Both the position numbers and the translations under genes were made by a program. The notes beneath the pieces are model-generated. The model had not been told where the DNA came from. It searched no databases and saw nothing but the letters and a program-made list of their open reading frames with translations. This document shows, piece by piece, positions 4,988 through 64,000 of a stretch of 64,000 nt of DNA (position 1 is its first letter; each line of letters begins with the position of its first letter). Source of the stretch: Vicinamibacterales bacterium (GTDB taxonomy: Bacteria; Acidobacteriota; Vicinamibacteria; Vicinamibacterales; SCN-69-37); contig JAKFEY010000030.1 of assembly GCA_036675475.1 (NCBI GenBank), forward strand, positions 23,893 through 87,892. Reading direction: 5' to 3'.

Positions 4988-4998
4988 TCTGTTACTCC

Positions 4999-5100
4999 AA
5001 GGCCAGAGGCCAGCGGCCAGAGGCGTGAGCCGAGCGCGACAACGCGCGCTCGCCTAAGTTTAGTCAGCCCTCTGGCCGCTGGCCTCTGGCCTCTGGCCTT
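4999..5100. repeat. Compound palindromic element: inverted arrays of GGCCAGA-type heptamers flanking an inner GC hairpin
   Basis: Left arm aaggccagaggccagcggccagagg (4999-5023). The right arm is its reverse complement plus one extra tctggcc unit (5068-5100). Inner hairpin: cgagcgcg-acaacg-cgcgctcg. The element sits between the FAH stop and the tal start. Confidence 0.85.
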
Positions 5101-7007: not shown

Positions 7008-8371
7008 AGGATGTACCGCGACAAGTCTTCGTTGCCGACGACATCCGCAAGCATGCGGTCGACGTAGGCGGCGTCGACCGTGACCGTGACGCCGTCCATC
7101 TCCGACGCGTTGAACGACACATCGTCGAGCAGCTTTTCCATGACGGTGTGCAGGCGGCGCGCGCCGATGTTCTCGGTGCGCTCGTTGACGAGCGTGGCGA
7201 ACTCGGCCAGGCGGCGGATGGCGCTCTCGTCGAAGGCGAGCGTGACGCCTTCGGTTTCGAGCAGCGCGCCGTACTGGCGAATGAGCGCGTTTTTCGGCTC
7301 GGTGAGGATGCGCACGAAGTCCGCTTCACCCAGCGCCTCGAGCTCGACGCGAATCGGGAAGCGCCCCTGCAGCTCGGGGATCAGATCGGACGGCTTCGAC
7401 ACGTGGAAGGCGCCGGCCGCGACGAACAGGATGTGGTCGGTGCGCACCATCCCGTATTTCGTGTTCACGGTCGTGCCCTCGACGATCGGCAGGATGTCGC
7501 GCTGCACGCCTTCGCGGCTGACATCGGGCCCCTGCGAACCTTCACGGCCGGCAATCTTGTCGATCTCATCGAGAAAGATGATGCCCGACTGCTCGGCGCG
7601 GTGCACGGCGGCGCGCGCCACGCTTTCCATGTCGATCAGCTTGCCGGCCTCTTCCGCCGTGAGCTGCTCGAGCGCGTCGGGCACGCGCAGTTTGCGCTTC
7701 TTCGTGCGGCCCCCGAACATGCCGGGCAGCATGTCCTTCATGTTGATGTCGATCTCTTCGACCGAGCCGCCCTGGATGATCTCGAACGAGGGGAACGTGC
7801 GCTCGCGCACGTCGATCTCGACGGTCTTCTCGTCGAGCTTTCCCGCGCGCAGCTGCTCGCGCAGCTTCTCGCGCGTGCGCTGGCCCTGCTCGCGCGCCGA
7901 GATCTGATCGGGTGTTTCCTCGCCATAGGAGGGCGCCGCCGGCAGCGGCGGCAGCAGCAGATCGAGCACGCGCTCTTCCGCCGCGGCGCGCGCCTTGTCC
8001 TTCACGTCGCCTTCGCGCTCGTCGCGCACCATCTTCACAGCGATCTCGACGAGGTCGCGCACCATCGACTCGACGTCGCGCCCGACGTAGCCGACTTCGG
8101 TGAACTTCGAAGCCTCGATCTTGAGGAACGGCGAATGCGCGAGCTTCGCGAGGCGGCGCGCGATCTCGGTTTTGCCGACGCCGGTGGGACCGATCATCAG
8201 GATGTTCTTCGGCGCGACTTCCTCGGCAAGCTCGGGCGTCAGTTTCTGGCGGCGGATGCGGTTGCGCAGTGCGATGGCCACGGCGCGCTTGGCCGCGGCC
8301 TGGCCGACGACATATTTATCGAGCTCCGCGACAATCTGCCGCGGCGTCAAAGCGGACGTCATGTCACTCAC
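7004..8371 (-). CDS. hslU: ATP-dependent protease ATPase subunit HslU
   Basis: 455 aa: [30 protein letters not shown], Walker [27 protein letters not shown], and C-terminal DLSRYIL. Confidence 0.96.
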
Positions 8372-28848: not shown

Positions 28849-30276
28849 GACTCCAGGCTCCAGGCTCCAGGCCCCAGCAGACTCCGGGTCCCTGGAGTCC
28901 CCTGGAGTCTGGAGCCTGGGGTCTGGAGCCTGATGCGCCCACCGCGCCAGATCGGCAAGCGCTCTCTCCGCCATGAGCGCTTTCCGATTCGCGCGCTTCG
29001 GCGCCTCGATCGGCGCGATGATGCCGAAGGTGATGTTGGTCGGATCGTAGTGCGCCGGGTCGGCGTGCGACACGTAGTGGCCGAGCGCGCCGATGGCCGT
29101 CGTGCGCGGCGGCGCCGACGGCTCGCGGCCAAGCGCCAGCGCCGCGGCATTGCGGCCGGCAATCAGGCCCGATGCGGCCGACTCGACGTAGCCCTCGACA
29201 CCGCTCACCTGCCCCGCGATGAACAGGCCCGGCTCGCGCCGCACCTGCCACGTGTCGTCGAGCACCGTCGGCCCGTTGATGTAGGTGTTGCGATGGATCA
29301 TGCCGTAACGCACGAACTCCGCATGCTCGAGGCCGGGGATCATGCGCAGCACGCGCGCCTGCTCGCCCCACTTCATCTGCGTCTGGAATCCGACGAGGCT
29401 GTAGTGATCGCCCGCGATGGTGTCCTGCCGCAGCTGCACGACTGCGTGCGGCCAGCGGCCGGTGCGCGGGTCGTCGAGCCCCACCGGCTTCATGGGCCCG
29501 AAGCGCAGCGTGTCGCGGCCGCGCGCCGCCATCACCTCGATCGGCAGGCAGCCCTCGAAGAACTTCGGCTGATCGAACTCGTGCAGGGCCGTTTTCTCGG
29601 CCGCATTCACCGCCTCGATGAACGCGGTGTACTCCGCCTCCGTCATCGGGCAGTTCAGATAATCGCCCGGACTTTCCACCTCAGCCCCGCGGCGATCGGT
29701 CGCGGGCCCTGAAGGGCCGCGCCGCGCGTCCTTGTTCCAGCGTGACGCGCGATAGACCTTCGACATGTCGATGCTCTCGGCGAGCACGATCGGACTGATG
29801 GCGTCGTAGAAATAGAGGTGCGCTCCGCCGACCAGGGCGGCCAGCTCCTTCGAGAGCGCATCCGACGTCAGCGGCCCTGTGGCCACGATCAGCGGACGCG
29901 GCAAATCCGCAAGCCGCTCGATCTCACCACGCGCGATCGTGATGAGCGGATGCGACGCGAGCGCCGCGGTCACTTGCTCGGAGAACTTCACACGGTCGAC
30001 GGCCATGGCACCGCCTGCCGGCACGCGCGCGGCTTCGCCCGCGCGCATCACCAGCGATCCCAGCCGCCGCATTTCTTCCTTGAGCAGGCCGACGGCGTTC
30101 TCGAGGCTGTCGCCGCGGAAGGAGTTGCTGCACACCAGCTCGGCGAGCCCGTCCGTCTTGTGGACGTCGGTCTGCCGCACCGGCCGCATCTCATGGATCG
30201 TGACGGCCACGCCCATCGACGCCGCCTGCCACGCGGCCTCCGACCCGGCCAGGCCGCCGCCGATGATGTGGATCAC
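28840..30276 (-). CDS. trmFO: Methylenetetrahydrofolate--tRNA-(uracil-5-)-methyltransferase TrmFO (Gid)
   Basis: 478 aa containing [45 protein letters not shown] and GQ.SGVEGY.ES. The roughly 30-aa C-terminal tail is encoded by the heptamer repeat element. Confidence 0.93.
28848..28933. repeat. Inverted arrays of CTCCAGG-type heptamers (imperfect palindromic element) forming the 3' end of trmFO
   Basis: ggactccaggctccaggctccaggcccc...actccgggtccctggagtcccctggagtctggagcctggggtctggagcc. It is translated as ...[30 protein letters not shown]. Confidence 0.8.
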
Positions 30277-57483: not shown

Positions 57484-58461
57484 CTATCGGGCGCGGCTGA
57501 ACACTGTCAATGGATCCTGCCGCGCGCCCGCGGCCAGGTGCAGCGCGATCGACGTCAGCGCGATGGCCGCCGCCGGCGCCAGCATCCACGGCGCGTCCGC
57601 AATCACGCGCACGTTGCTCGCGTCCTGCAGCATCGTGCCCCAGCTTGGCGTGGGCTCGGGAAAGCCGAGGCCGAGAAACGACAGCGTGACTTCGGAAATC
57701 AGGAAGCCGGGCACGAGGATCAGGAACTGCGTGACGAGAAAGCCTGATGTGGCCGGCAGCAGGTGCACGAACATCAGGCGCAGGCGCGAGGCGCCGGCCG
57801 CGCGCGCGGCGTCGGCGTAGTCGAGCGCGCGCTCGCGCTGCAGGATGCCGCGCACCCCCCACGCCGTCATCGGCCATCCGACGAGGCCGAACAACAGCAC
57901 CAGTGCGAGGAACACCTGGCCCGGCGTCATCACGAGCGGCATGGCCGCGCGAAGCGCAAGGACGATGTAGACCACCGGCAGCGTGGCGAGTCCGGTGGAC
58001 GTGGCGACGACGAGGCGATCGGCGGCGCGTCCGCCGCCCGCGGCAAGCGCGCCGAGCAGCGCGCCCACCGCGATGGCCAGCAGCGAGCCCGCGATGGCCA
58101 CGCCAAGCGACCAGCGCGCGGCGCCGGCGACACGCGCGAGGATGTCGCGCCCGAGCGCGTCGGCGCCCAGCAGAAACAGGGGCGCGCTCGCATCCTCGGG
58201 CGTCGAGACGAGGCGGCCGTCGCTGAAGAGATCGACGTCGATGCGGCGCGAGGTGTCCTCGCCGAACGTGCGCGAGAGGCGATCGGTGAGCGCGAGCGGG
58301 TGCGCGAAGAGGCCGCCGCCCGACGCGTGCAGCGGCATCGGCGGCGCCCACGCGCTGTCATGAAACTGTTCCGACGCCGCGTTGGGCGCAAGCCGGTCGC
58401 CGGTCGCGACGAGCAGCAGTAGAATCGCCGACAGCGCCACGCCGATGCGCCTCGCGATCAC
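57484..58461 (-). CDS. ABC transporter permease (OppC/DppC type)
   Basis: GTG at 58461 (GTGA overlap with the upstream permease). It has the EAA-loop region YADAARAAGASRLRLMFVHLLP and about 6 TM segments. Confidence 0.85.
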   Translation of the reverse strand: MIARRIGVALSAILLLLVATGDRLAPNAASEQFHDSAWAPPMPLHASGGGLFAHPLALTDRLSRTFGEDTSRRIDVDLFSDGRLVSTPEDASAPLFLLGADALGRDILARVAGAARWSLGVAIAGSLLAIAVGALLGALAAGGGRAADRLVVATSTGLATLPVVYIVLALRAAMPLVMTPGQVFLALVLLFGLVGWPMTAWGVRGILQRERALDYADAARAAGASRLRLMFVHLLPATSGFLVTQFLILVPGFLISEVTLSFLGLGFPEPTPSWGTMLQDASNVRVIADAPWMLAPAAAIALTSIALHLAAGARQDPLTVFSRAR

Positions 58462-59384
58462 TTCGCGGCCTCGTGCGCGGCGATGCGCGGATCGAGCAGG
58501 TTGACAAGCACGTCGGACACGAGCCCGAGCGCCGCGACGGCGCCGGCGATGGCCGCGGTGCATCCCGCTACGAGAAAGATGTCGCGCGCGACGAGCGCGT
58601 CGAGCATCAGGCGCCCGAGCCCCGCCCAGCCGGTCACGACCTCCACCAGCAGCGACGCGCCAAAAATGTTGGCGGCGACCAGCGGCATCACCGACGTGAC
58701 GCGCGTGGCGGCCACGCGCATGCCGAGCTTCCACACGAGCACGCGCCGCGCGACGCCGCGCGCCGACGAGGCGGTGGCCCAGGGCGCGCCAACGGCCTCG
58801 GCAAGCGCTTCGGCGTGCAGGCGCGCAAGCGCGCCCGCGGCCGGCAGCAGCAGCGCCGTGACGCCGAGCAGCGGCGTCACCACGCCGTGCGCACCCTGCG
58901 CGAGCCATCCCGATCGCACCGCCAGCAGCATGAGCGCGAACAGGATGACGATCGACGGCACCGAGAGCACGAGCGTGGCGGCGCCCGACAGCAGCATCCG
59001 CACGAGCGGCCGGCCCTGCACGAGCCACGTGCCCCACAGAATGCCGATGACAAACGCCAGCGCGATGGCCGACGCCACGAGGCCGACCGTGCGGGGCGCG
59101 CGCTCGGCGAGCAGCGACGTGACGGGACGCGCGAAGCGATACGACGTGCCGAGATCGAGCTGGACGAGCCCGGTCAGCCAGATGCGCGAAAGGTCGGGAA
59201 GGGATCGATCGAGATAGAGCCGCCGGCGCTCGCGCTCGATGGCATCGGCCGGCACGCGCGCGGCGCGCAGCGTGTCCGTGTAGTCGCCGGGCGCGCGGCG
59301 CGCGAGAATCAGCGCGCTCGTCGAGACGAGCGCGACAAACAGCAGCGCGGCGGCGACGCGGCGAAAGACGAGCAGCGCGGTCAC
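58458..59384 (-). CDS. ABC transporter permease (OppB/DppB type)
   Basis: GVG-type check not needed: GTG at 59384 (overlaps the SBP stop), 308 aa. It has an N-terminal TM segment, then PGDY, and polytopic topology. Confidence 0.83.
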   Translation of the reverse strand: MTALLVFRRVAAALLFVALVSTSALILARRAPGDYTDTLRAARVPADAIERERRRLYLDRSLPDLSRIWLTGLVQLDLGTSYRFARPVTSLLAERAPRTVGLVASAIALAFVIGILWGTWLVQGRPLVRMLLSGAATLVLSVPSIVILFALMLLAVRSGWLAQGAHGVVTPLLGVTALLLPAAGALARLHAEALAEAVGAPWATASSARGVARRVLVWKLGMRVAATRVTSVMPLVAANIFGASLLVEVVTGWAGLGRLMLDALVARDIFLVAGCTAAIAGAVAALGLVSDVLVNLLDPRIAAHEAAK

Positions 59385-61078
59385 TTCGTGCCGAGCGCCT
59401 CCGGCATCCACAACACGTGCGGCATCAGCACCACGGGCTTTACGCCGGTGAGCCTCGCGCTGGTGGGCACGACCACCTTGGGTACGGCGAAGTAGATGGC
59501 GGGCAGCTCCGCGGCGAACAGGCGCTGCACGTCGTGAAACGCGCGCCGGCGCTCCTGCTGATCCGGCGAGTGCGCCACCGTATCCATCAACGCGGCGAGG
59601 CGCGCTTCCCAGTCGGTCGCCGGCGCCGGCTGCGCGGGATTCCACAGATGGAACGGGCCGCTCGGCAGCCAGAAATCCAGGTTGACGGCCGGATCGGCGG
59701 AGCTCGCCTGCAGCCCGAACAGCACCGCGTCGTAGTCGCCGCTGCCGATGCGCGCGATGAGCGCGCCCGTTTCGAGCGGCACCACGTCGACGGCCAGGCC
59801 GGCGCGCCGCAGATCCTCCTGCACGATCGACGCGGTGCGCTCGCGCGTCGTGTGGCCGCGCTGCGTCAGCAGCGCGATGCGCGCCTCGCGGCCGTTCGCG
59901 TCCTCGCGCACGCCGTCGCCGTTGCGATCCTCGAGCCCGATCGACGCGAGCAGCCGCGCCGCCTCGTCCACATCGTGCGGCGGCGGCACCACGTCCGTCG
60001 CATGCCAGATCCCATGCCCCGTCGTCACCGGCGTGATCACCGGCTCGCCCGCGCCGAGGAACACGGTGTCGACGATGCGCTGGCGGCTGACGGCGCGCGA
60101 GATGGCCTGGCGCAGCTCGGTGCGCTGCAGCCAGGGGCGGTCGATCGAGGCGGGCGCGCCCGGCTTGAGGTTGAACCAGAGCGCGTTGGCGTCGAGCGCG
60201 GCGCCGACGTCGTGCAGCCGCACGCGCCCCTGCTGCTCGAGCGCGCGGAAGGCGGCGATGTCTTCGGCGCGCAGGCCGCTGGTGACGAGATCGGCGGCGC
60301 CGGATTCGAGTTGCACCATCTCGGCGCTCTGATCCGGCACGACGCGCACGATGATGGCTTCGGCGAGACCTTCGCGCGGCAGCTGATCGCGGCGGAAGTA
60401 GTGCGGGTTGCGCGCGAAGGTGATCGACTCGCCCGCGCGCGCCTCGCGCACGATGAACGGGCCGAGACCGACGATGGTGTCGGGCGGCGCGGACGCGGCC
60501 CACGCTTCGGCGAAGCGGCCCGAGGCGAGCGCGTCTTCGAGGCGATGGCGCGGCAGCATCGGCAGGAAGTCGAGGATGGCGAGGCCGGGGCCGTACGGCG
60601 CGGGGAAATCGATGCGCACGGTGTGCGCGTCTTCCTCGGTGATCGCGAGCGGCTGACCGTTGACGCGCAGGCCGCTGGCGGCGGCGCTGTTAACGCGCGC
60701 GTCGTACACCGCGCGGAACGTGAACGCGACGTCGGCGGCCGTGAACGGCGCGCCGTCGGAGAAGCGCACGTCGCGCGCGAGGTGCAGACGGAAACTCGTG
60801 TTGCTGAGCGCGTCCCATCGCTCCGCAAGCCACGGCATGACGAGTCCCGTCTGCCGATCCACTTTGATCAGCGGCGCGTGAATCAGGTTGGTGATGACGT
60901 CGACGGCGGCCGTCGCGCTCACGAGCCGGTTGAAGCTTTCGGGCTCGGTGCGCAGCGTGGCGACGATGGGAGCCGCTTCGCGGGGCTGCACATTCCTGCG
61001 CGCCTGCAGCTGCCAGACGGCAAGACCGGCGACGACAACAAGTGCTACGGCTGCAAGCAGTTTCAGAGATTTAGCCAA
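59381..61078 (-). CDS. ABC transporter substrate-binding protein, family 5 (peptide/nickel type)
   Basis: 565 aa with a TTG start and the signal peptide MAKSLKLLAAVALVVVAGLAVW. Its length and motifs (RFSDG.PFTA.DV.F) are typical of OppA/DppA-like SBPs. Confidence 0.87.
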   Translation of the reverse strand: MAKSLKLLAAVALVVVAGLAVWQLQARRNVQPREAAPIVATLRTEPESFNRLVSATAAVDVITNLIHAPLIKVDRQTGLVMPWLAERWDALSNTSFRLHLARDVRFSDGAPFTAADVAFTFRAVYDARVNSAAASGLRVNGQPLAITEEDAHTVRIDFPAPYGPGLAILDFLPMLPRHRLEDALASGRFAEAWAASAPPDTIVGLGPFIVREARAGESITFARNPHYFRRDQLPREGLAEAIIVRVVPDQSAEMVQLESGAADLVTSGLRAEDIAAFRALEQQGRVRLHDVGAALDANALWFNLKPGAPASIDRPWLQRTELRQAISRAVSRQRIVDTVFLGAGEPVITPVTTGHGIWHATDVVPPPHDVDEAARLLASIGLEDRNGDGVREDANGREARIALLTQRGHTTRERTASIVQEDLRRAGLAVDVVPLETGALIARIGSGDYDAVLFGLQASSADPAVNLDFWLPSGPFHLWNPAQPAPATDWEARLAALMDTVAHSPDQQERRRAFHDVQRLFAAELPAIYFAVPKVVVPTSARLTGVKPVVLMPHVLWMPEALGTK

Positions 61079-61137
61079 AAATTGACCGCCCGGCCAATTC
61101 CTTGGCCTGTATACAGACTCTGCAGTTTCCGCCGGAA

Positions 61138-61160
61138 TTTTGGGTAGTTGTTACCCAAAA
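61138..61160. promoter_or_regulatory. 9-bp perfect inverted repeat (ttttgggta-N5-tacccaaaa) in the divergent SBP/protease intergenic region; candidate operator
   Basis: Read directly. It is AT-rich relative to the surroundings and is flanked by two copies of tgcagtttc(c/t)gcc (61121-61133, 61257-61269). Confidence 0.5.
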
Positions 61161-61374
61161 CGGCTGCGATCCGGCAAAGGACAACAGGTTGGCCGATGCC
61201 GCGTGACGTTTAAGTTTCTGCAAACACGCCACTTCCGGCTCCTGACCCCTCCAGATTGCAGTTTCTGCCACCGATAGTCCTTTTGTGTCACATCGACGCA
61301 AGAAATGCTCAGCCATGGCACTGCGCATGCCTTACGTCGTCCCCGAAGCTGCTTCCCCACTTCAGACCGGACGT

Positions 61375-63093
61375 ATGCGAATGCTCACGATGACCCCAGC
61401 ACCGGAGAAGGCCGCGATCCGCGGCCGGCGACGCTGGTTCCTGATTGCGGCCGCCGCAATTGCCCTTCTAGGTATCGTCCCTCAGCCTGCCGAAGCGCAG
61501 AGGCGCGCGAAACTCTCGCGCGATCTCGAGGCGCGGCTGGCCGGGGCGGGCGCGGGCCGCGCCGAAGTCATTCTCGATCGCCTGACGGCCGGCGAGATCG
61601 AGCGCCTGGCGGCGAAGCATGGCGCGACGGTGAAGCGCCACTTCTCGCGCGGCGCGGTGCTCGACGTCGACGCCGACGCGCTCCGCGCCCTCGCGGCCGA
61701 TCCTGACGTTCCCCACATCTCCGGCAATCACACCGTGCTCAGCACGATGGCCGTGGCCCTCGCGGCCACGGGCGCCGACCAGTTGCATGGCGACGACAGC
61801 GATCGCGGCGAGGCGCGCTACACCGGCAGTGGCATTGGCATCGCCGTGATCGACTCGGGCATCGCGCGGCACTCGTCGCTCGCGGGCAAGGTGGTTGCGA
61901 ACGTCGACTTCATCGACGGCGGCCGCGGCCGGCGAGGGGCTGACGATGAGTATGGGCATGGGACGCATGTGGCGAGCATCATCGCGGGTGATGAGCGCGG
62001 CAAGGGCGGCCTGCGCGGCATGGCGCCCGGCGCGCATCTGGTGAACCTGCGAGTGCTCGACGAGAACGGCCAGGGCACGGTGGCGGATGTCATCGACGCC
62101 ATCGACTGGGCGATCGACAACCGCGCGCGCTACAACCTGCGCATCGTCAATCTCTCGCTCGGTGCGGCGCCGCAGGAAAGCGCGGCGGACGATCCGCTGG
62201 TGCAGGCGGTGGACCGCGCGGTGCAGGCGGGGCTGCTCGTCGTGGCGTCGGCCGGCAACATGGGCAAGACCGAGGACGGCAAGATGATTCTTGGCGCCGT
62301 CCTCTCGCCCGGCTTGGCGGCCTCGTCGCTGACGGTGGGCGGCGCGAACACGCGCGGCACGGCGTATCTCGGTGACGACACGGTGGCGACGTGGAGCTCG
62401 CGCGGCCCCACGTATCCGGACGGCCTGATCAAGCCGGACGTGATCGCGCCGGGCAATCGCATCATCGCGGCGGGCGTCGAGGGATCGACGCTGTGGACCA
62501 GCTATGCGGAGCGGCGCGCCGGCGGCCGTGGCGCGAACGGCCGCATCGAGCTCAGTGGCACCAGCATGTCGGCGGCGGTGGTGTCGGGCGCCGCGGCGCT
62601 GCTGCTGGAAGCCGCGCCTGGCCTGTCGCCGGCGCAGGTGAAGACCGCGCTGCAGCTGACGGCGGCGCCCATCGAAGGCGCCGGCCTGATCGAAATGGGC
62701 GCCGGCGAAATCAATCTTCCTCTCGCCCTCTTCGTCGCCCAGAACGGCCCCAACGTGCCGCTGCCCGCCGCGCAAATTGCCGGCGCGAGCGTGGTGCCGA
62801 GCGGGATCGCGTTTGGGAGCGACGAGAGCCAAATCGAAGGCAACAACGTTGTCTGGGGCAACAACGTTGTCTGGGGCAACAACGTTGTCTGGGGCAACAA
62901 CGTTGTCTGGGGCAACAACGTCGTCTGGGGCAACAACGTCGTCTGGGGCAACAACGTTGTCTGGGGTAACAACGTTGTCTGGGGCAACAACGTTGTCTGG
63001 GGCAACAACGTCGTCTGGGGCAACAACGTTGTCTGGGGCAACAACGTCGTCTGGGGTAACAACGTCGTCTGGGGTAACTCCGACGTTCAATGA
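61375..63093 (+). CDS. Subtilisin-like (S8) serine protease with a Tat-type signal and a C-terminal 13x NNVVWG hexapeptide array
   Basis: The start MRMLTMTPAPEKAAIRGRRRWFLIAAAAIALLG is twin-arginine-like. The catalytic residues are D (AVIDSGI), H (HGTHVASII) and S (SGTSMSAAVVSG). The start is uncertain (alternatives at 61285 and 61315). Confidence 0.88.
   Translation: MRMLTMTPAPEKAAIRGRRRWFLIAAAAIALLGIVPQPAEAQRRAKLSRDLEARLAGAGAGRAEVILDRLTAGEIERLAAKHGATVKRHFSRGAVLDVDADALRALAADPDVPHISGNHTVLSTMAVALAATGADQLHGDDSDRGEARYTGSGIGIAVIDSGIARHSSLAGKVVANVDFIDGGRGRRGADDEYGHGTHVASIIAGDERGKGGLRGMAPGAHLVNLRVLDENGQGTVADVIDAIDWAIDNRARYNLRIVNLSLGAAPQESAADDPLVQAVDRAVQAGLLVVASAGNMGKTEDGKMILGAVLSPGLAASSLTVGGANTRGTAYLGDDTVATWSSRGPTYPDGLIKPDVIAPGNRIIAAGVEGSTLWTSYAERRAGGRGANGRIELSGTSMSAAVVSGAAALLLEAAPGLSPAQVKTALQLTAAPIEGAGLIEMGAGEINLPLALFVAQNGPNVPLPAAQIAGASVVPSGIAFGSDESQIEGNNVVWGNNVVWGNNVVWGNNVVWGNNVVWGNNVVWGNNVVWGNNVVWGNNVVWGNNVVWGNNVVWGNNVVWGNNVVWGNSDVQ
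62842..63075 (+). repeat. 13 tandem 18-nt repeats AACAACGT(T/C)GTCTGGGG(C/T) encoding (NNVVWG)13
   Basis: Counted unit by unit. The only variation is at two synonymous wobble positions. The array is in frame with the S8 protease ORF. Confidence 0.97.
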
Positions 63094-63134
63094 GTCGGAC
63101 TCAATCGGGAAATCTGCACGGAAAGGATAGGATT

Positions 63135-63164
63135 ATGAGCAAAGTTATCGTCTGGGGCAGCTAA
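63135..63164 (+). CDS. Candidate 9-codon micro-ORF MSKVIVWGS (orphan repeat unit, leader peptide or non-coding relic)
   Basis: An AGGA-containing purine tract (gaaaggatagg) ends 4 nt before the ATG. The string gtctggggca is shared with the upstream repeat unit. A small hairpin (gaagg-tcg-ccttc) and then the next gene's ATG follow. Confidence 0.25.
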   Translation: MSKVIVWGS

Positions 63165-63192
63165 ATAAGAACGAAGGTCGCCTTCTTCCGCG

Positions 63193-64000
63193 ATGAAATC
63201 GACTGGATCTCTTTCTGTTCGGGCCCGCAGTTATGTCGTCGCCGTCGCTGCTATTGGCGGCGGCGTGCTCATAGCCGCCGTTGCGGATCTATTACGGGAT
63301 CGAGTCGACCCTTGGTGGTTCCTCCTGGTCGGGCTCACGGTCTTTACAAGCTCGGTCACCGTCAAAGTACCATCCGTCGCGGCGACGTTGTCGGTTTCTG
63401 AAGCGTTCGTGTTTTCGTCCGTGATCCTGTACGGCTGGTCTGCAGGGACAATCGTCGCCTCCATCGATGGGCTAGTCATTTCATACTGGTTGCAACGACG
63501 ACGGCCGCAGCCAACCTATCGCGTCGTTTTCAACACCACGGCTCCGGCTTTGGCGACATGCTTTGCGGCTTGGGTTTACTTTGCCGCGGGGGCACCCAAC
63601 GTATCGGACCCGGCGTTCCAGATCACCCAGATCTTGCTCCCGTTGTGTGCCTTCGCCGCGACGTACTTCCTTGCGAACACTTCTCTACTCGCTGTAGCGA
63701 TCTCTCTTGAGCAAGGTGTCTCGGCCGTCACGCTCTGGAAGAACAATTTCTTATCCCTTTGGCTCAATTTTTTCAGCGGCGCCTCGATGGCCGCACTGCT
63801 GGTTAGCTTTGGTGCCCAAGGTGGGGCCAATGCTCTGGGCGCTATATGGGTAGTTCTCCCGCTTTTGGGTATCTCGTACTTCACGTATAAGACATCGATG
63901 GCGCGAATCGAAGACGCCAACAAGCATCTGGAACAGCTGAATACGCTCTACCTTTCCACGGTAGAAACGTTGGCAATGGCCATCGATGCCAAAGATCAGA
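63193..64000 (+). CDS. Polytopic membrane protein, probable N-terminal sensor or membrane domain of an HD/HD-GYP-type phosphohydrolase (partial; runs off the right edge)
   Basis: Manual translation is open from ATG 63193 to the window end and shows about 6 hydrophobic helices. The final residues read HLEQLNTLYLSTVETLAMAIDAKDQ. From memory, that resembles the segment preceding the Y-T-x-G-H-S-x-R-V motif of HD-GYP domains, but the HD domain itself is outside the window. GC and codon usage are visibly lower (TTA, CTA, ATA). Confidence 0.65.
   Translation, partial: MKSTGSLSVRARSYVVAVAAIGGGVLIAAVADLLRDRVDPWWFLLVGLTVFTSSVTVKVPSVAATLSVSEAFVFSSVILYGWSAGTIVASIDGLVISYWLQRRRPQPTYRVVFNTTAPALATCFAAWVYFAAGAPNVSDPAFQITQILLPLCAFAATYFLANTSLLAVAISLEQGVSAVTLWKNNFLSLWLNFFSGASMAALLVSFGAQGGANALGAIWVVLPLLGISYFTYKTSMARIEDANKHLEQLNTLYLSTVETLAMAIDAKDQ

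Follow-up and report, generated by a model that had tools for sequence, protein, structure and literature searches.

Several secreted subtilases, among them Tk-SP of Thermococcus kodakarensis, AprV2, AprV5 and BprV of Dichelobacter nodosus and the halolysin SptA, share a layout of signal peptide, I9 propeptide, S8 catalytic domain and C-terminal extension. In two reports (PMC3480457, PMC3158780), the extensions of these enzymes are described as stabilising the enzyme, binding something, or being processed off. Here, we describe a protease gene of the same layout from a Vicinamibacterales bacterium (Acidobacteriota), located in a stretch of 64,000 nucleotides (GenBank assembly GCA_036675475.1, contig JAKFEY010000030.1, positions 23,893 to 87,892 of the forward strand) that we call the window and to which coordinates refer unless a locus is named. 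Whereas the extensions of Tk-SP, AprV, BprV and SptA are globular (beta-jelly roll, PPC or Cys-containing CTE) and have no Trp-Gly repeat, the tail of the window protease is made of tandem 6-residue units. We find that this tail belongs to a large family of acidobacterial subtilase extensions, that purifying selection maintains the core motif of the family, and that one copy of the motif recurs in a conserved 9-codon open reading frame (ORF) just downstream of the gene. We know of no follow-on mini-gene with a matching motif for the subtilases named above.

The gene and its tail are laid out as follows:

61375 to 63093, + strand: gene for a 572-aa pre-pro-protease of the S8 (subtilisin) family, repeat tail included, identified by PF00082, homologs and AlphaFold
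62839 to 63072, + strand: 13 tandem 18-nt units encoding GNNVVW, from repeat finding and unit-by-unit translation, equivalent to NNVVWG at 62842-63075
63073 to 63093, + strand: degenerate 14th unit GNSDVQ (63073-63090) followed by the TGA stop (63091-63093)

According to Tandem Repeats Finder, positions 62839-63078 are by far the top repeat of the window (period 18, 13.3 copies, 96% matches, score 424). Translated unit by unit, the codons are GGC/T AAC AAC GTT/C GTC TGG, 13 times as assembled. Two sites in the unit are polymorphic and both are synonymous: GTC replaces GTT at codon 4 in units 5, 6, 10, 12 and 13, and GGT replaces GGC at codon 1 in units 8 and 13. Units 1-4 have the same DNA and form a perfect run of 72 nt. 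Repeat finding and translation thus confirm the initial annotation of the locus, made from the DNA letters alone, which had described (NNVVWG)x13 at 62842-63075 with GTT/GTC and GGC/GGT wobble as the only differences. In a relative with 71% identity (locus L001), the counterpart of the terminal GNSDVQ reads GNTTVN.

A homology search with the protease returned more than 2,000 proteins, mostly 'S8 family' or 'AprX' entries from Vicinamibacterales or Acidobacteriota. Among the best 120 of these more than 2,000 homologs, almost all C-termini carry aliphatic-aliphatic-Trp-Gly (phi-phi-W-G) repeats, in units of 6-16 residues such as ADNILWGN, DSKRIIWG and GRGVSGDTIVWG. Across 44 related loci there are many perfect hexapeptide arrays, including DTLIWG x13 in L010 and DRIVWG by dozens in L003-L005, and NNVVWG itself recurs in L034, L038 and L043. 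Contrary to what had been supposed at first, the perfect 13-mer array is therefore not exceptional, perfect arrays being common among relatives. A tail-only protein search gave only 410 candidates and 4 short fragments; composition filters suppress such queries, and a degenerate DNA pattern encoding four consecutive phi-phi-W-G hexads was scanned over species-representative genomes instead. At least 120 loci matched, nearly all of them in Acidobacteriota. Among the matches listed, about 90 of 125 array-bearing ORFs have an S8 domain, the remainder being contig-end truncations, frameshifts just 3' of the S8 gene in Nanopore metagenome-assembled genomes (MAGs), or chance matches to low-complexity sequence in other frames or phyla. 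Genuine arrays sit almost solely in one S8 clade and run to the extreme C-terminus. Judged from these searches, the tail family appears to comprise hundreds to thousands of acidobacterial subtilases.

Neither Pfam nor NCBIfam has a model for the tail. The strings NNVVWG, NIVWGN, DRIVWG, LIIWGE, IIVWGD and VIVWGS occur in no paper within the searched literature, and literature searches for hexapeptide tails on subtilases, or for small ORFs and HD-GYP proteins in connection with Acidobacteria, yielded nothing relevant. The tail is thus a new subtilase C-terminal extension of repeat type, without description in Pfam, NCBIfam or the searched literature. The idea that it might be a well-populated known domain family is borne out in its first half only: the family is well populated, but it is neither curated nor described.

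Repeat-tailed S8 genes also occur as tandem paralogs with differing units, three in L093 and two each in L023, L031, L126 and L118, which indicates that the family has expanded by paralogy. Variant tails are seen on related S8 proteases in L027 and L028 (Pyrinomonadaceae) and in L035 and L036 (Chloroflexia), in the form of DGLIYG hexapeptides, with Tyr for Trp, and of STASW pentapeptide runs. In another relative, P0028, the called ORF starts MAHTHNRIIVWSGRIIVWGTK... ahead of the signal peptide; judging from this N-terminus, copies of the motif may lie upstream of some protease genes as well.

To obtain a measure of constraint on the repeat, units were compared within each array by the Nei-Gojobori method, giving the synonymous (pS) and nonsynonymous (pN) divergence between units:

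L013, DTIVWS, 6 units: pS 0.80, pN 0
L161, NSVVWG, 8 units: pS 0.80, pN 0
L019, DRIIWS, 8 units: pS 0.78, pN 0
L004, DRIVWG, 19 units: pS 0.63, pN 0.011
L001, NALVWG (the 71% relative), 6 units: pS 0.71, pN 0.01
Window, NNVVWG, 13 units: pS 0.245, pN 0

For the family, the combination of same peptide units with near-saturated synonymous divergence argues for purifying selection on the peptide and not for recent expansion alone. The two polar positions of the hexapeptide differ among lineages and are often invariant within one protein. In longer-period arrays, the four-residue core has a pN of 0 and the spacers are variable, as expected where strands are conserved and the loops between them vary. 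Purifying selection maintains the core motif of the tail in the family. Judged by its DNA, the array of the window is young: its pS is 0.245 and it contains a 72-nt perfect run. Of the two origins initially offered for the conserved peptide, selection on the protein therefore holds for the family (pS up to 0.8 with pN 0), while recent expansion describes the window's own array.

The next question is what such a tail looks like. All PDB matches to it, with E-values from 5e-4 to about 1, are left-handed beta-helix (LbH) proteins, namely polysialic acid O-acetyltransferase, LpxA, LpxD, eIF2B-epsilon and gamma-carbonic anhydrase (best E 5e-4). In these alignments the W-G of the tail falls on the [LIV]-G of the hexapeptide motif, placing Trp at the aliphatic position. 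The NCBIfam LpxD model matches the tail with an E-value of 1.6e-5 and 24 bits, against a cutoff of 242. In a full-length AlphaFold model built with 70 homologs, a strand of 3-4 residues lies on every (N)VVW(G), once per six residues, with pLDDT values of 53-73. In 79 relatives picked regardless of period, the dominant Trp-to-Trp period is even in 64 and odd in 15, a bias that beta-strand geometry would favour; when similar unit types are grouped, which corrects roughly for relatedness, the counts become 29 even versus 13 odd. Twelve-residue units retain the hexad skeleton, as in GRGVSG-DTIVWG and NQTVDG-NILVWS. The physical model that these predictions support best, if weakly, is a regular repetitive beta-structure, probably solenoid-like.

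The tail motif also occurs outside the protease. Just downstream of its stop codon lie the following elements:

63123 to 63127, + strand: Shine-Dalgarno-like AAGGA, 7 nt 5' of the mini-ORF start
63135 to 63164, + strand: mini-ORF of 9 codons encoding MSKVIVWGS, a conserved peptide with one copy of the tail motif (VIVWG)

The mini-ORF (ATG AGC AAA GTT ATC GTC TGG GGC AGC TAA) starts 41 nt past the protease stop. In L001 (positions 7723-7752 of that locus), the same peptide is encoded with synonymous DNA changes only, including AGC to TCC for Ser, and with a different stop codon; the flanks are unalignable. In total, 29 mini-ORFs of 8-10 codons were found in 27 loci, every one of them between the protease gene and a gene for an HD-GYP protein, described below. 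Their consensus is M-x-x-phi-I-phi-W-[GD]-[DES]-stop, and the peptides in relatives include MKPIIVWG, MQRLIIWGD, MARIIVWGD, MKLIIWGE, MKPLIIWGE, MRPLIIWDE and MNNSIIVWD. The nucleotide identity of the mini-ORFs is 0.62 versus 0.29 for the flanks, and GGAG, GAGG or AGGA is present 5-10 nt 5' of nearly all 29. A metatranscriptome unitig matches positions 63060-63210 without mismatch, which is weak evidence that a single RNA runs from the end of the tail through the mini-ORF into the start of the HD-GYP gene. From its sequence features, the mini-ORF is a translated-looking candidate for a functional micro-gene. Loci in which the HD-GYP gene is divergent have no mini-ORF.

We considered whether the mini-ORF is reached by read-through or frameshifting from the protease gene and rejected this. 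The two frames differ in the window, and in L001 they are the same with two stops between, so that the relative frame is not conserved and the mini-ORF is no read-through extension. The region between the protease and HD-GYP genes has no Rfam match at E<=1; folding energies of six orthologous intergenic regions are like those of shuffled sequences (z -0.6 to +1.4), and the short hairpins in them are not conserved. As a separate observation, the motif (G)CCGATA(G) is found within a few bases 3' of the mini-ORF stop in about ten loci (L008, L009, L014, L015, L017, L020, L069, L073, L087 and L141), and also in the window at 61271-61277, just 5' of the sigma-54 box that precedes the protease gene.

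The remainder of the protease has these parts:

61375 to 61497, + strand: signal peptide, residues 1-41, ending in RGRRRWFLIAAAAIALLGIVPQPAEA before Q, with a twin-arginine-like RRxFL, as read from the sequence
61498 to 61746, + strand: I9-type N-terminal propeptide, residues about 42-124, from AlphaFold and Foldseek
61825 to 62664, + strand: S8 catalytic domain, residues 151-430, from the Pfam match, with Asp160, His198 and Ser397

The PF00082 match has 177 bits against a cutoff of 21.8 (E 6e-52, Pfam), and the catalytic Asp160, His198 and Ser397 as well as the oxyanion Asn295 are unchanged across a 70-sequence alignment. The full-length AlphaFold model made with that alignment has a mean pLDDT of 82.8. 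In this model the propeptide adopts a beta-alpha-beta-beta-alpha-beta fold (pLDDT 84-97), the catalytic domain is likewise modelled at pLDDT above 84, and the junction at residues 125-131 is disordered; an RA[KR]LSxDL motif at the propeptide start is kept among relatives. Foldseek aligns the propeptide to unprocessed pro-subtilases. For the full model, subtilases were the sole matches (pro-Tk-SP, E 2e-29; pro-subtilisin, E 4e-24), the best being ProN-Tk-SP (3afg, 33% identity). The gene product is a genuine S8 subtilase with an I9 propeptide. Two more specific identities were tried and rejected. A mycosin of the type VII secretion system (T7SS; TIGR03921) is the top NCBIfam match but reaches only 157 bits against an equivalog cutoff of 278.75, reflecting general S8 similarity, and the model for the PatA/PatG protease gives 51 bits against a cutoff of 421. 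An exact-protein lookup found the window protease absent from the records.

The signal peptide reads G-R-R-R-W-F-L-I, then AAAAIALLGIV, then AEA followed by Q, and RRRWFL fits RRxFL. The closest relatives retain the RR, and a Tat-like RRx-phi-phi is present in 20 of 113 relatives, most of the others being Sec-type in appearance. Export by the twin-arginine (Tat) pathway, which had been taken as given, is plausible for the window protein with its Tat-like motif and AxA site, but does not extend as a rule to relatives. An alternative GTG start at 61285 was rejected in favour of ATG 61375, because a conserved promoter at 61316-61330 falls between the two.

That promoter and the genes on either side are as follows:

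61316 to 61330, + strand: predicted sigma-54 type -24/-12 promoter, TGGCACTGCGCATGC, with one mismatch to TGGCAC-N5-TTGC, about 45 nt 5' of the protease start
63193 to 64000, + strand: 5' part of a gene for a MASE9-HD-GYP(-GAF) membrane cyclic di-GMP (c-di-GMP) phosphodiesterase, with MASE9 at E 6e-5 in the fragment, cut by the window end
57484 to 61078, - strand: peptide/nickel-type ABC importer genes, comprising an SBP_bac_5 binding protein (59381-61078) and two permeases, from Pfam; NCBIfam Opp/NikA-type models match below cutoff

Of 24 related loci, 17 have a sigma-54 box with at most one mismatch ahead of their protease gene, and the box is preserved when the window is aligned to L001 and L002. 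The background is about 0.05 per kb, with 4 matches in the whole window on both strands. The protease gene is thus predicted to be under sigma-54 control, and the conserved box would imply that its regulator is the sigma-54 activator whose gene closes the cluster in relatives. The region between the binding-protein and protease genes also contains blocks common to L001 and L002, namely the palindromes CTGTATACAG and GGGTAGTTGTTACCC and the block ATTGCAGTTTCTGCCACCGATAG, at 61107-61116, 61142-61156 and 61254-61277 of the window (+ strand). These conserved blocks are likely regulator binding sites.

The full-length ortholog of the phosphodiesterase in L001 has MASE9, HD_5 (E 1e-39) and GAF domains. 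Of 138 loci, 56 have a MASE9-HD-GYP homolog next to their repeat-tailed S8 gene, across two acidobacterial classes; these synteny counts are drawn from loci of 8-13 kb, and absences are soft. Two arrangements occur: either the HD-GYP gene is downstream on the same strand, with a mini-ORF, or the two genes are head-to-head divergent, without one. In relatives (L001), a gene for a sigma-54 enhancer-binding protein follows the HD-GYP gene. Its N-terminal domain of about 600 aa has no family match in Pfam, NCBIfam or the PDB and evolves about twice as fast as its ATPase domain; a 178-aa ORF without a family match lies past this activator gene. As in the window, about 45 related loci have a divergent binding-protein gene ahead of the protease gene, and no importer ATPase genes are adjacent at the locus. 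Further neighbours in the window encode a DHDPS-family protein, an aminotransferase and an M48 peptidase. Among the annotated genes of the window and L001 loci, there are no modifying enzymes for ribosomally synthesised and post-translationally modified peptides (RiPPs; radical SAM, P450, YcaO, prenyltransferase and others).

Elsewhere in the window, two intergenic regions contain 7-nt tandem repeats as inverted arms, AGGCCAG versus CCTCTGG/CTGGCCT at 4998-5100 and CTCCAGG versus CCTGGAG at 28850-28935. Each pair of arms would fold into a long, imperfect hairpin reminiscent of REP elements or terminators.

What does the tail do? The reading that we favour, tentatively, is that it is a folded, LbH-like repetitive beta-structure that is kept on the enzyme and docks or self-associates. 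Each VVW would be a short strand and each G-N-N a turn, and the fold would resemble a left-handed beta-helix solenoid with stacked Trp and Val ladders. The enzyme would be exported and its I9 propeptide removed autocatalytically, as is standard for S8 proteases, and the mature enzyme would keep the tail and be held in place by self-association or by docking to a periodic partner in the envelope or matrix. LbH domains typically trimerise. The number of units might set the length of the rod. A protease made from the predicted sigma-54 promoter would in this way be retained near the cell by its tail, and the neighbouring c-di-GMP enzyme would fit a role in the matrix or biofilm.

Several observations weigh against such a structure. 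The tail has no Pfam Hexapep match at E<=1, LbH_EIF2B scores an E-value of 0.38 with 11 bits versus 54, and in general the LbH scores of the tail are far under the family cutoffs. When the tail is modelled in isolation, from a 5-sequence alignment, its AlphaFold pLDDT is 38. The bias towards even periods is modest once relatedness is roughly allowed for, and a Trp at an inward position would be sterically odd in a canonical LbH. Moreover, the polar positions are invariant within many hexapeptide arrays, which a solenoid does not require; the tail is confined to one protease clade, whereas binding or anchoring modules are usually common to many enzyme types; and the conserved 9-codon gene with the tail motif is left unexplained. 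The beta-solenoid with a Trp ladder that had been proposed from the letters alone is therefore weakly supported: similarity to LbH proteins only, the AlphaFold strands and the even periods speak for it, and the low confidence for the tail alone speaks against it.

A rather unlikely but serious alternative is that the tail is a polyprotein. The S8 domain, either the fused one or that of a sibling, would cut between the Trp and Gly of each phi-phi-W-G (aromatic P1, small P1') and release 13 GNNVVW signal peptides, to be re-imported via the adjacent Dpp/Opp-type importer or sensed in the membrane by the MASE9-HD-GYP protein, with feedback on the sigma-54 activator. The mini-ORF would supply the tail motif from the cell interior, by a logic analogous to that of Phr/RNPP or SHP/Rgg systems. 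Subtilisins prefer large hydrophobic or aromatic residues at P1. The confinement of real arrays almost entirely to S8 proteases, at the extreme C-terminus, would suit such processing, as would the removal of C-terminal extensions by secreted subtilases that is reported in PMC3480457. Units that are exactly alike within a protein despite saturated synonymous divergence, and that are specific to a lineage, form the pattern of a multi-copy precursor, yet the spacers of long-period arrays vary within a protein and would yield heterogeneous products, and the even-period bias and hexad skeleton indicate a folded structure. The motif also exists free-standing, as a translated-looking gene of 8-10 codons.

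The neighbourhood can be read in the same two ways. Conserved neighbours are a peptide-type ABC importer, a membrane-sensor c-di-GMP phosphodiesterase and an activator with a fast-evolving N-terminal domain, and the predicted sigma-54 promoter on the protease gene would make feedback possible. However, neither an RNPP/Rgg-type receptor nor a modifying enzyme was found at the annotated loci, the importer is without adjacent ATPase genes, and the HD-GYP neighbour is missing beside many family members. A nitrogen-scavenging regulon of sigma-54, protease and peptide importer would be a simpler account of the synteny. For the initial suggestion that the array is a poly-cargo cut by its own protease, the S8-only arrays, the alike units, the mini-gene and the importer and signalling genes thus provide circumstantial support, against which stands the lack of a modifying enzyme nearby.

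A more specific scheme, which we regard as unlikely, has a single peptide signal come from both the tail and the mini-gene. In it, the protease would cut its own multi-copy pro-peptide after each Trp, and the resulting phi-phi-W peptides would be lineage-specific autoinducers, sensed by the MASE9-HD-GYP-GAF protein or re-imported and sensed by the sigma-54 activator that drives the protease promoter. If true, Acidobacteria would possess a self-contained circuit of peptide and c-di-GMP signalling whose precursor is a polyprotein fused to the protease, with the 9-codon gene as an intracellular mimic or a regulatory leader.

We think it improbable that phi-phi-W-G is instead a ligand of the MASE9 domain, so that the tail would tether a periplasmic protease to the sensor or report its presence, by analogy with LapD-LapG, and the mini-ORF peptide would be a monovalent competitor or mimic. 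To our knowledge, MASE9 has no known ligand. The proximity of protease and MASE9-HD-GYP genes in two gene orders and two acidobacterial classes points in this direction, as does the restriction of the mini-ORF to loci with the HD-GYP gene downstream of the protease gene; on the other hand, over half of the loci have no HD-GYP gene within reach, and the mini-ORF peptide has no export signal. MASE9 has been proposed by its definers to bind a ligand within the membrane (bioRxiv 10.1101/2021.11.05.467447), a setting into which a hydrophobic, Trp-rich motif would fit.

It is very improbable that the array is a contingency tract, i.e., a slippage-prone, always in-frame 18-nt repeat whose population-variable copy number tunes the length of the tail and whose exact peptide is unimportant. 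The DNA of the window array, with its 72-nt perfect run, merely two polymorphic sites and 96% matches overall, would fit this description. In addition, the unit junctions are partly covered by unitigs of several metagenomes and positions 62966-63002 are uncovered, which may reflect strain differences. However, most relatives have units that are strongly diverged in DNA (pS 0.3-0.8) and still encode the same peptide, which makes slippage unlikely. This reading, also among those first put forward, therefore matches the window DNA only and leaves the family unexplained.

That the assembler created or collapsed the array, or its length of 13 units, is hardly credible: although several short-read assemblies are broken at arrays (L002 and several NCBI 'partial' proteins), Logan unitigs terminate within the array and the arrays of some Nanopore MAGs contain frameshifts, in four independent metagenomes the sequence runs from both flanks into the array in frame, three variant junctions inside it were recovered exactly, and many long-read MAGs hold complete arrays of comparable length. 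The existence of the array is secure, and only the unit count of 13 is provisional. At least 20 public metagenomes contain the array flanks as k-mer unitigs (Logan) that end inside the array. For the closest two relatives (80% and 71% identity), the contigs end at the array and the proteins are 'partial', which indicates that short-read assemblers break there. Among Nanopore libraries, no long-read run with the array region was found. In the Nanopore MAGs L022, L039, L041, L069 and L096, the protease ORF is broken up by frameshifts within arrays, with 'RHDRLE' frames as one result, so that the annotation of such genes in public MAGs is unreliable. Separately, twenty public metagenome runs from groundwater, soil and rhizosphere, representing at least 13 studies, contain 66-94% of the 31-mers sampled from 62300-63400. 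Judged by these matches, the source organism or very close strains appear to be widely distributed.

In soils, Acidobacteria belong to the most abundant groups of bacteria, and the enzymes that they secrete, like the signalling between their cells, have hardly been characterised. The locus described here is part of a conserved module of predicted sigma-54 promoter, repeat-tailed protease, 9-codon ORF with the tail motif, MASE9-HD-GYP phosphodiesterase and sigma-54 activator. The tail family, the selection at the peptide level and, above all, a micro-ORF with the tail motif within a sigma-54/c-di-GMP module were unexpected. Should the favoured reading of a Trp-ladder solenoid be true, the tail would be a new protein-anchoring or oligomerisation module; should it be a peptide polyprotein, it would be a new kind of bacterial signal precursor.

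Beyond the subtilases with which we began, three groups of described systems invite comparison. The first is that of multi-copy peptide precursors and protease-matured signalling peptides. Multi-core precursors, such as cyanobactin PatE with the S8 proteases PatA and PatG, and the fungal dikaritin precursors, resemble the tail in having tandem copies of the same short unit. The tail units differ from those of RiPP precursors in that they abut without recognition spacers and stand behind a folded enzyme and not behind a leader, with no modifying enzymes at the annotated loci. In Bacillus, subtilisin, Epr and Vpr mature the Phr peptides, which Opp then takes back up. As in Phr/RNPP and streptococcal SHP/Rgg systems, a putative exported precursor, an S8 protease and an oligopeptide-type importer are encoded together here; the ends of SHP peptides (...IIIVGG) and of mini-ORF peptides (...IIVWGD) are similarly hydrophobic and Gly-bearing, with unit sequences that are lineage-specific. 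Unlike those systems, the precursor would here be fused to the protease itself, no RNPP (TPR) or Rgg receptor was found, and the organism is Gram-negative.

The LbH proteins (LpxA, LpxD, GlmU and gamma-carbonic anhydrase; Hexapep) share the six-residue period of the tail, whose [bulky hydrophobic]-G-x-x-V-x aligns with their I-G-x-x-V-x. In contrast to LbH repeats, which are degenerate, the tail has uniform units with Trp in place of Ile, Leu or Val in every one; the periods of its relatives are 7-16 residues, and it is carried by an exported protease, whereas LbH is found on cytoplasmic acyltransferases. Finally, the beta-solenoids of ice-nucleation and antifreeze proteins and the choline- and cell-wall-binding repeats have no sequence similarity to the tail and are not known to be tied to a single enzyme family. 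Like the tail, though, they consist of long runs of near-uniform short units with a conserved aromatic residue and Gly, and by analogy with them, selection for a regular surface could be the cause of the uniform units.

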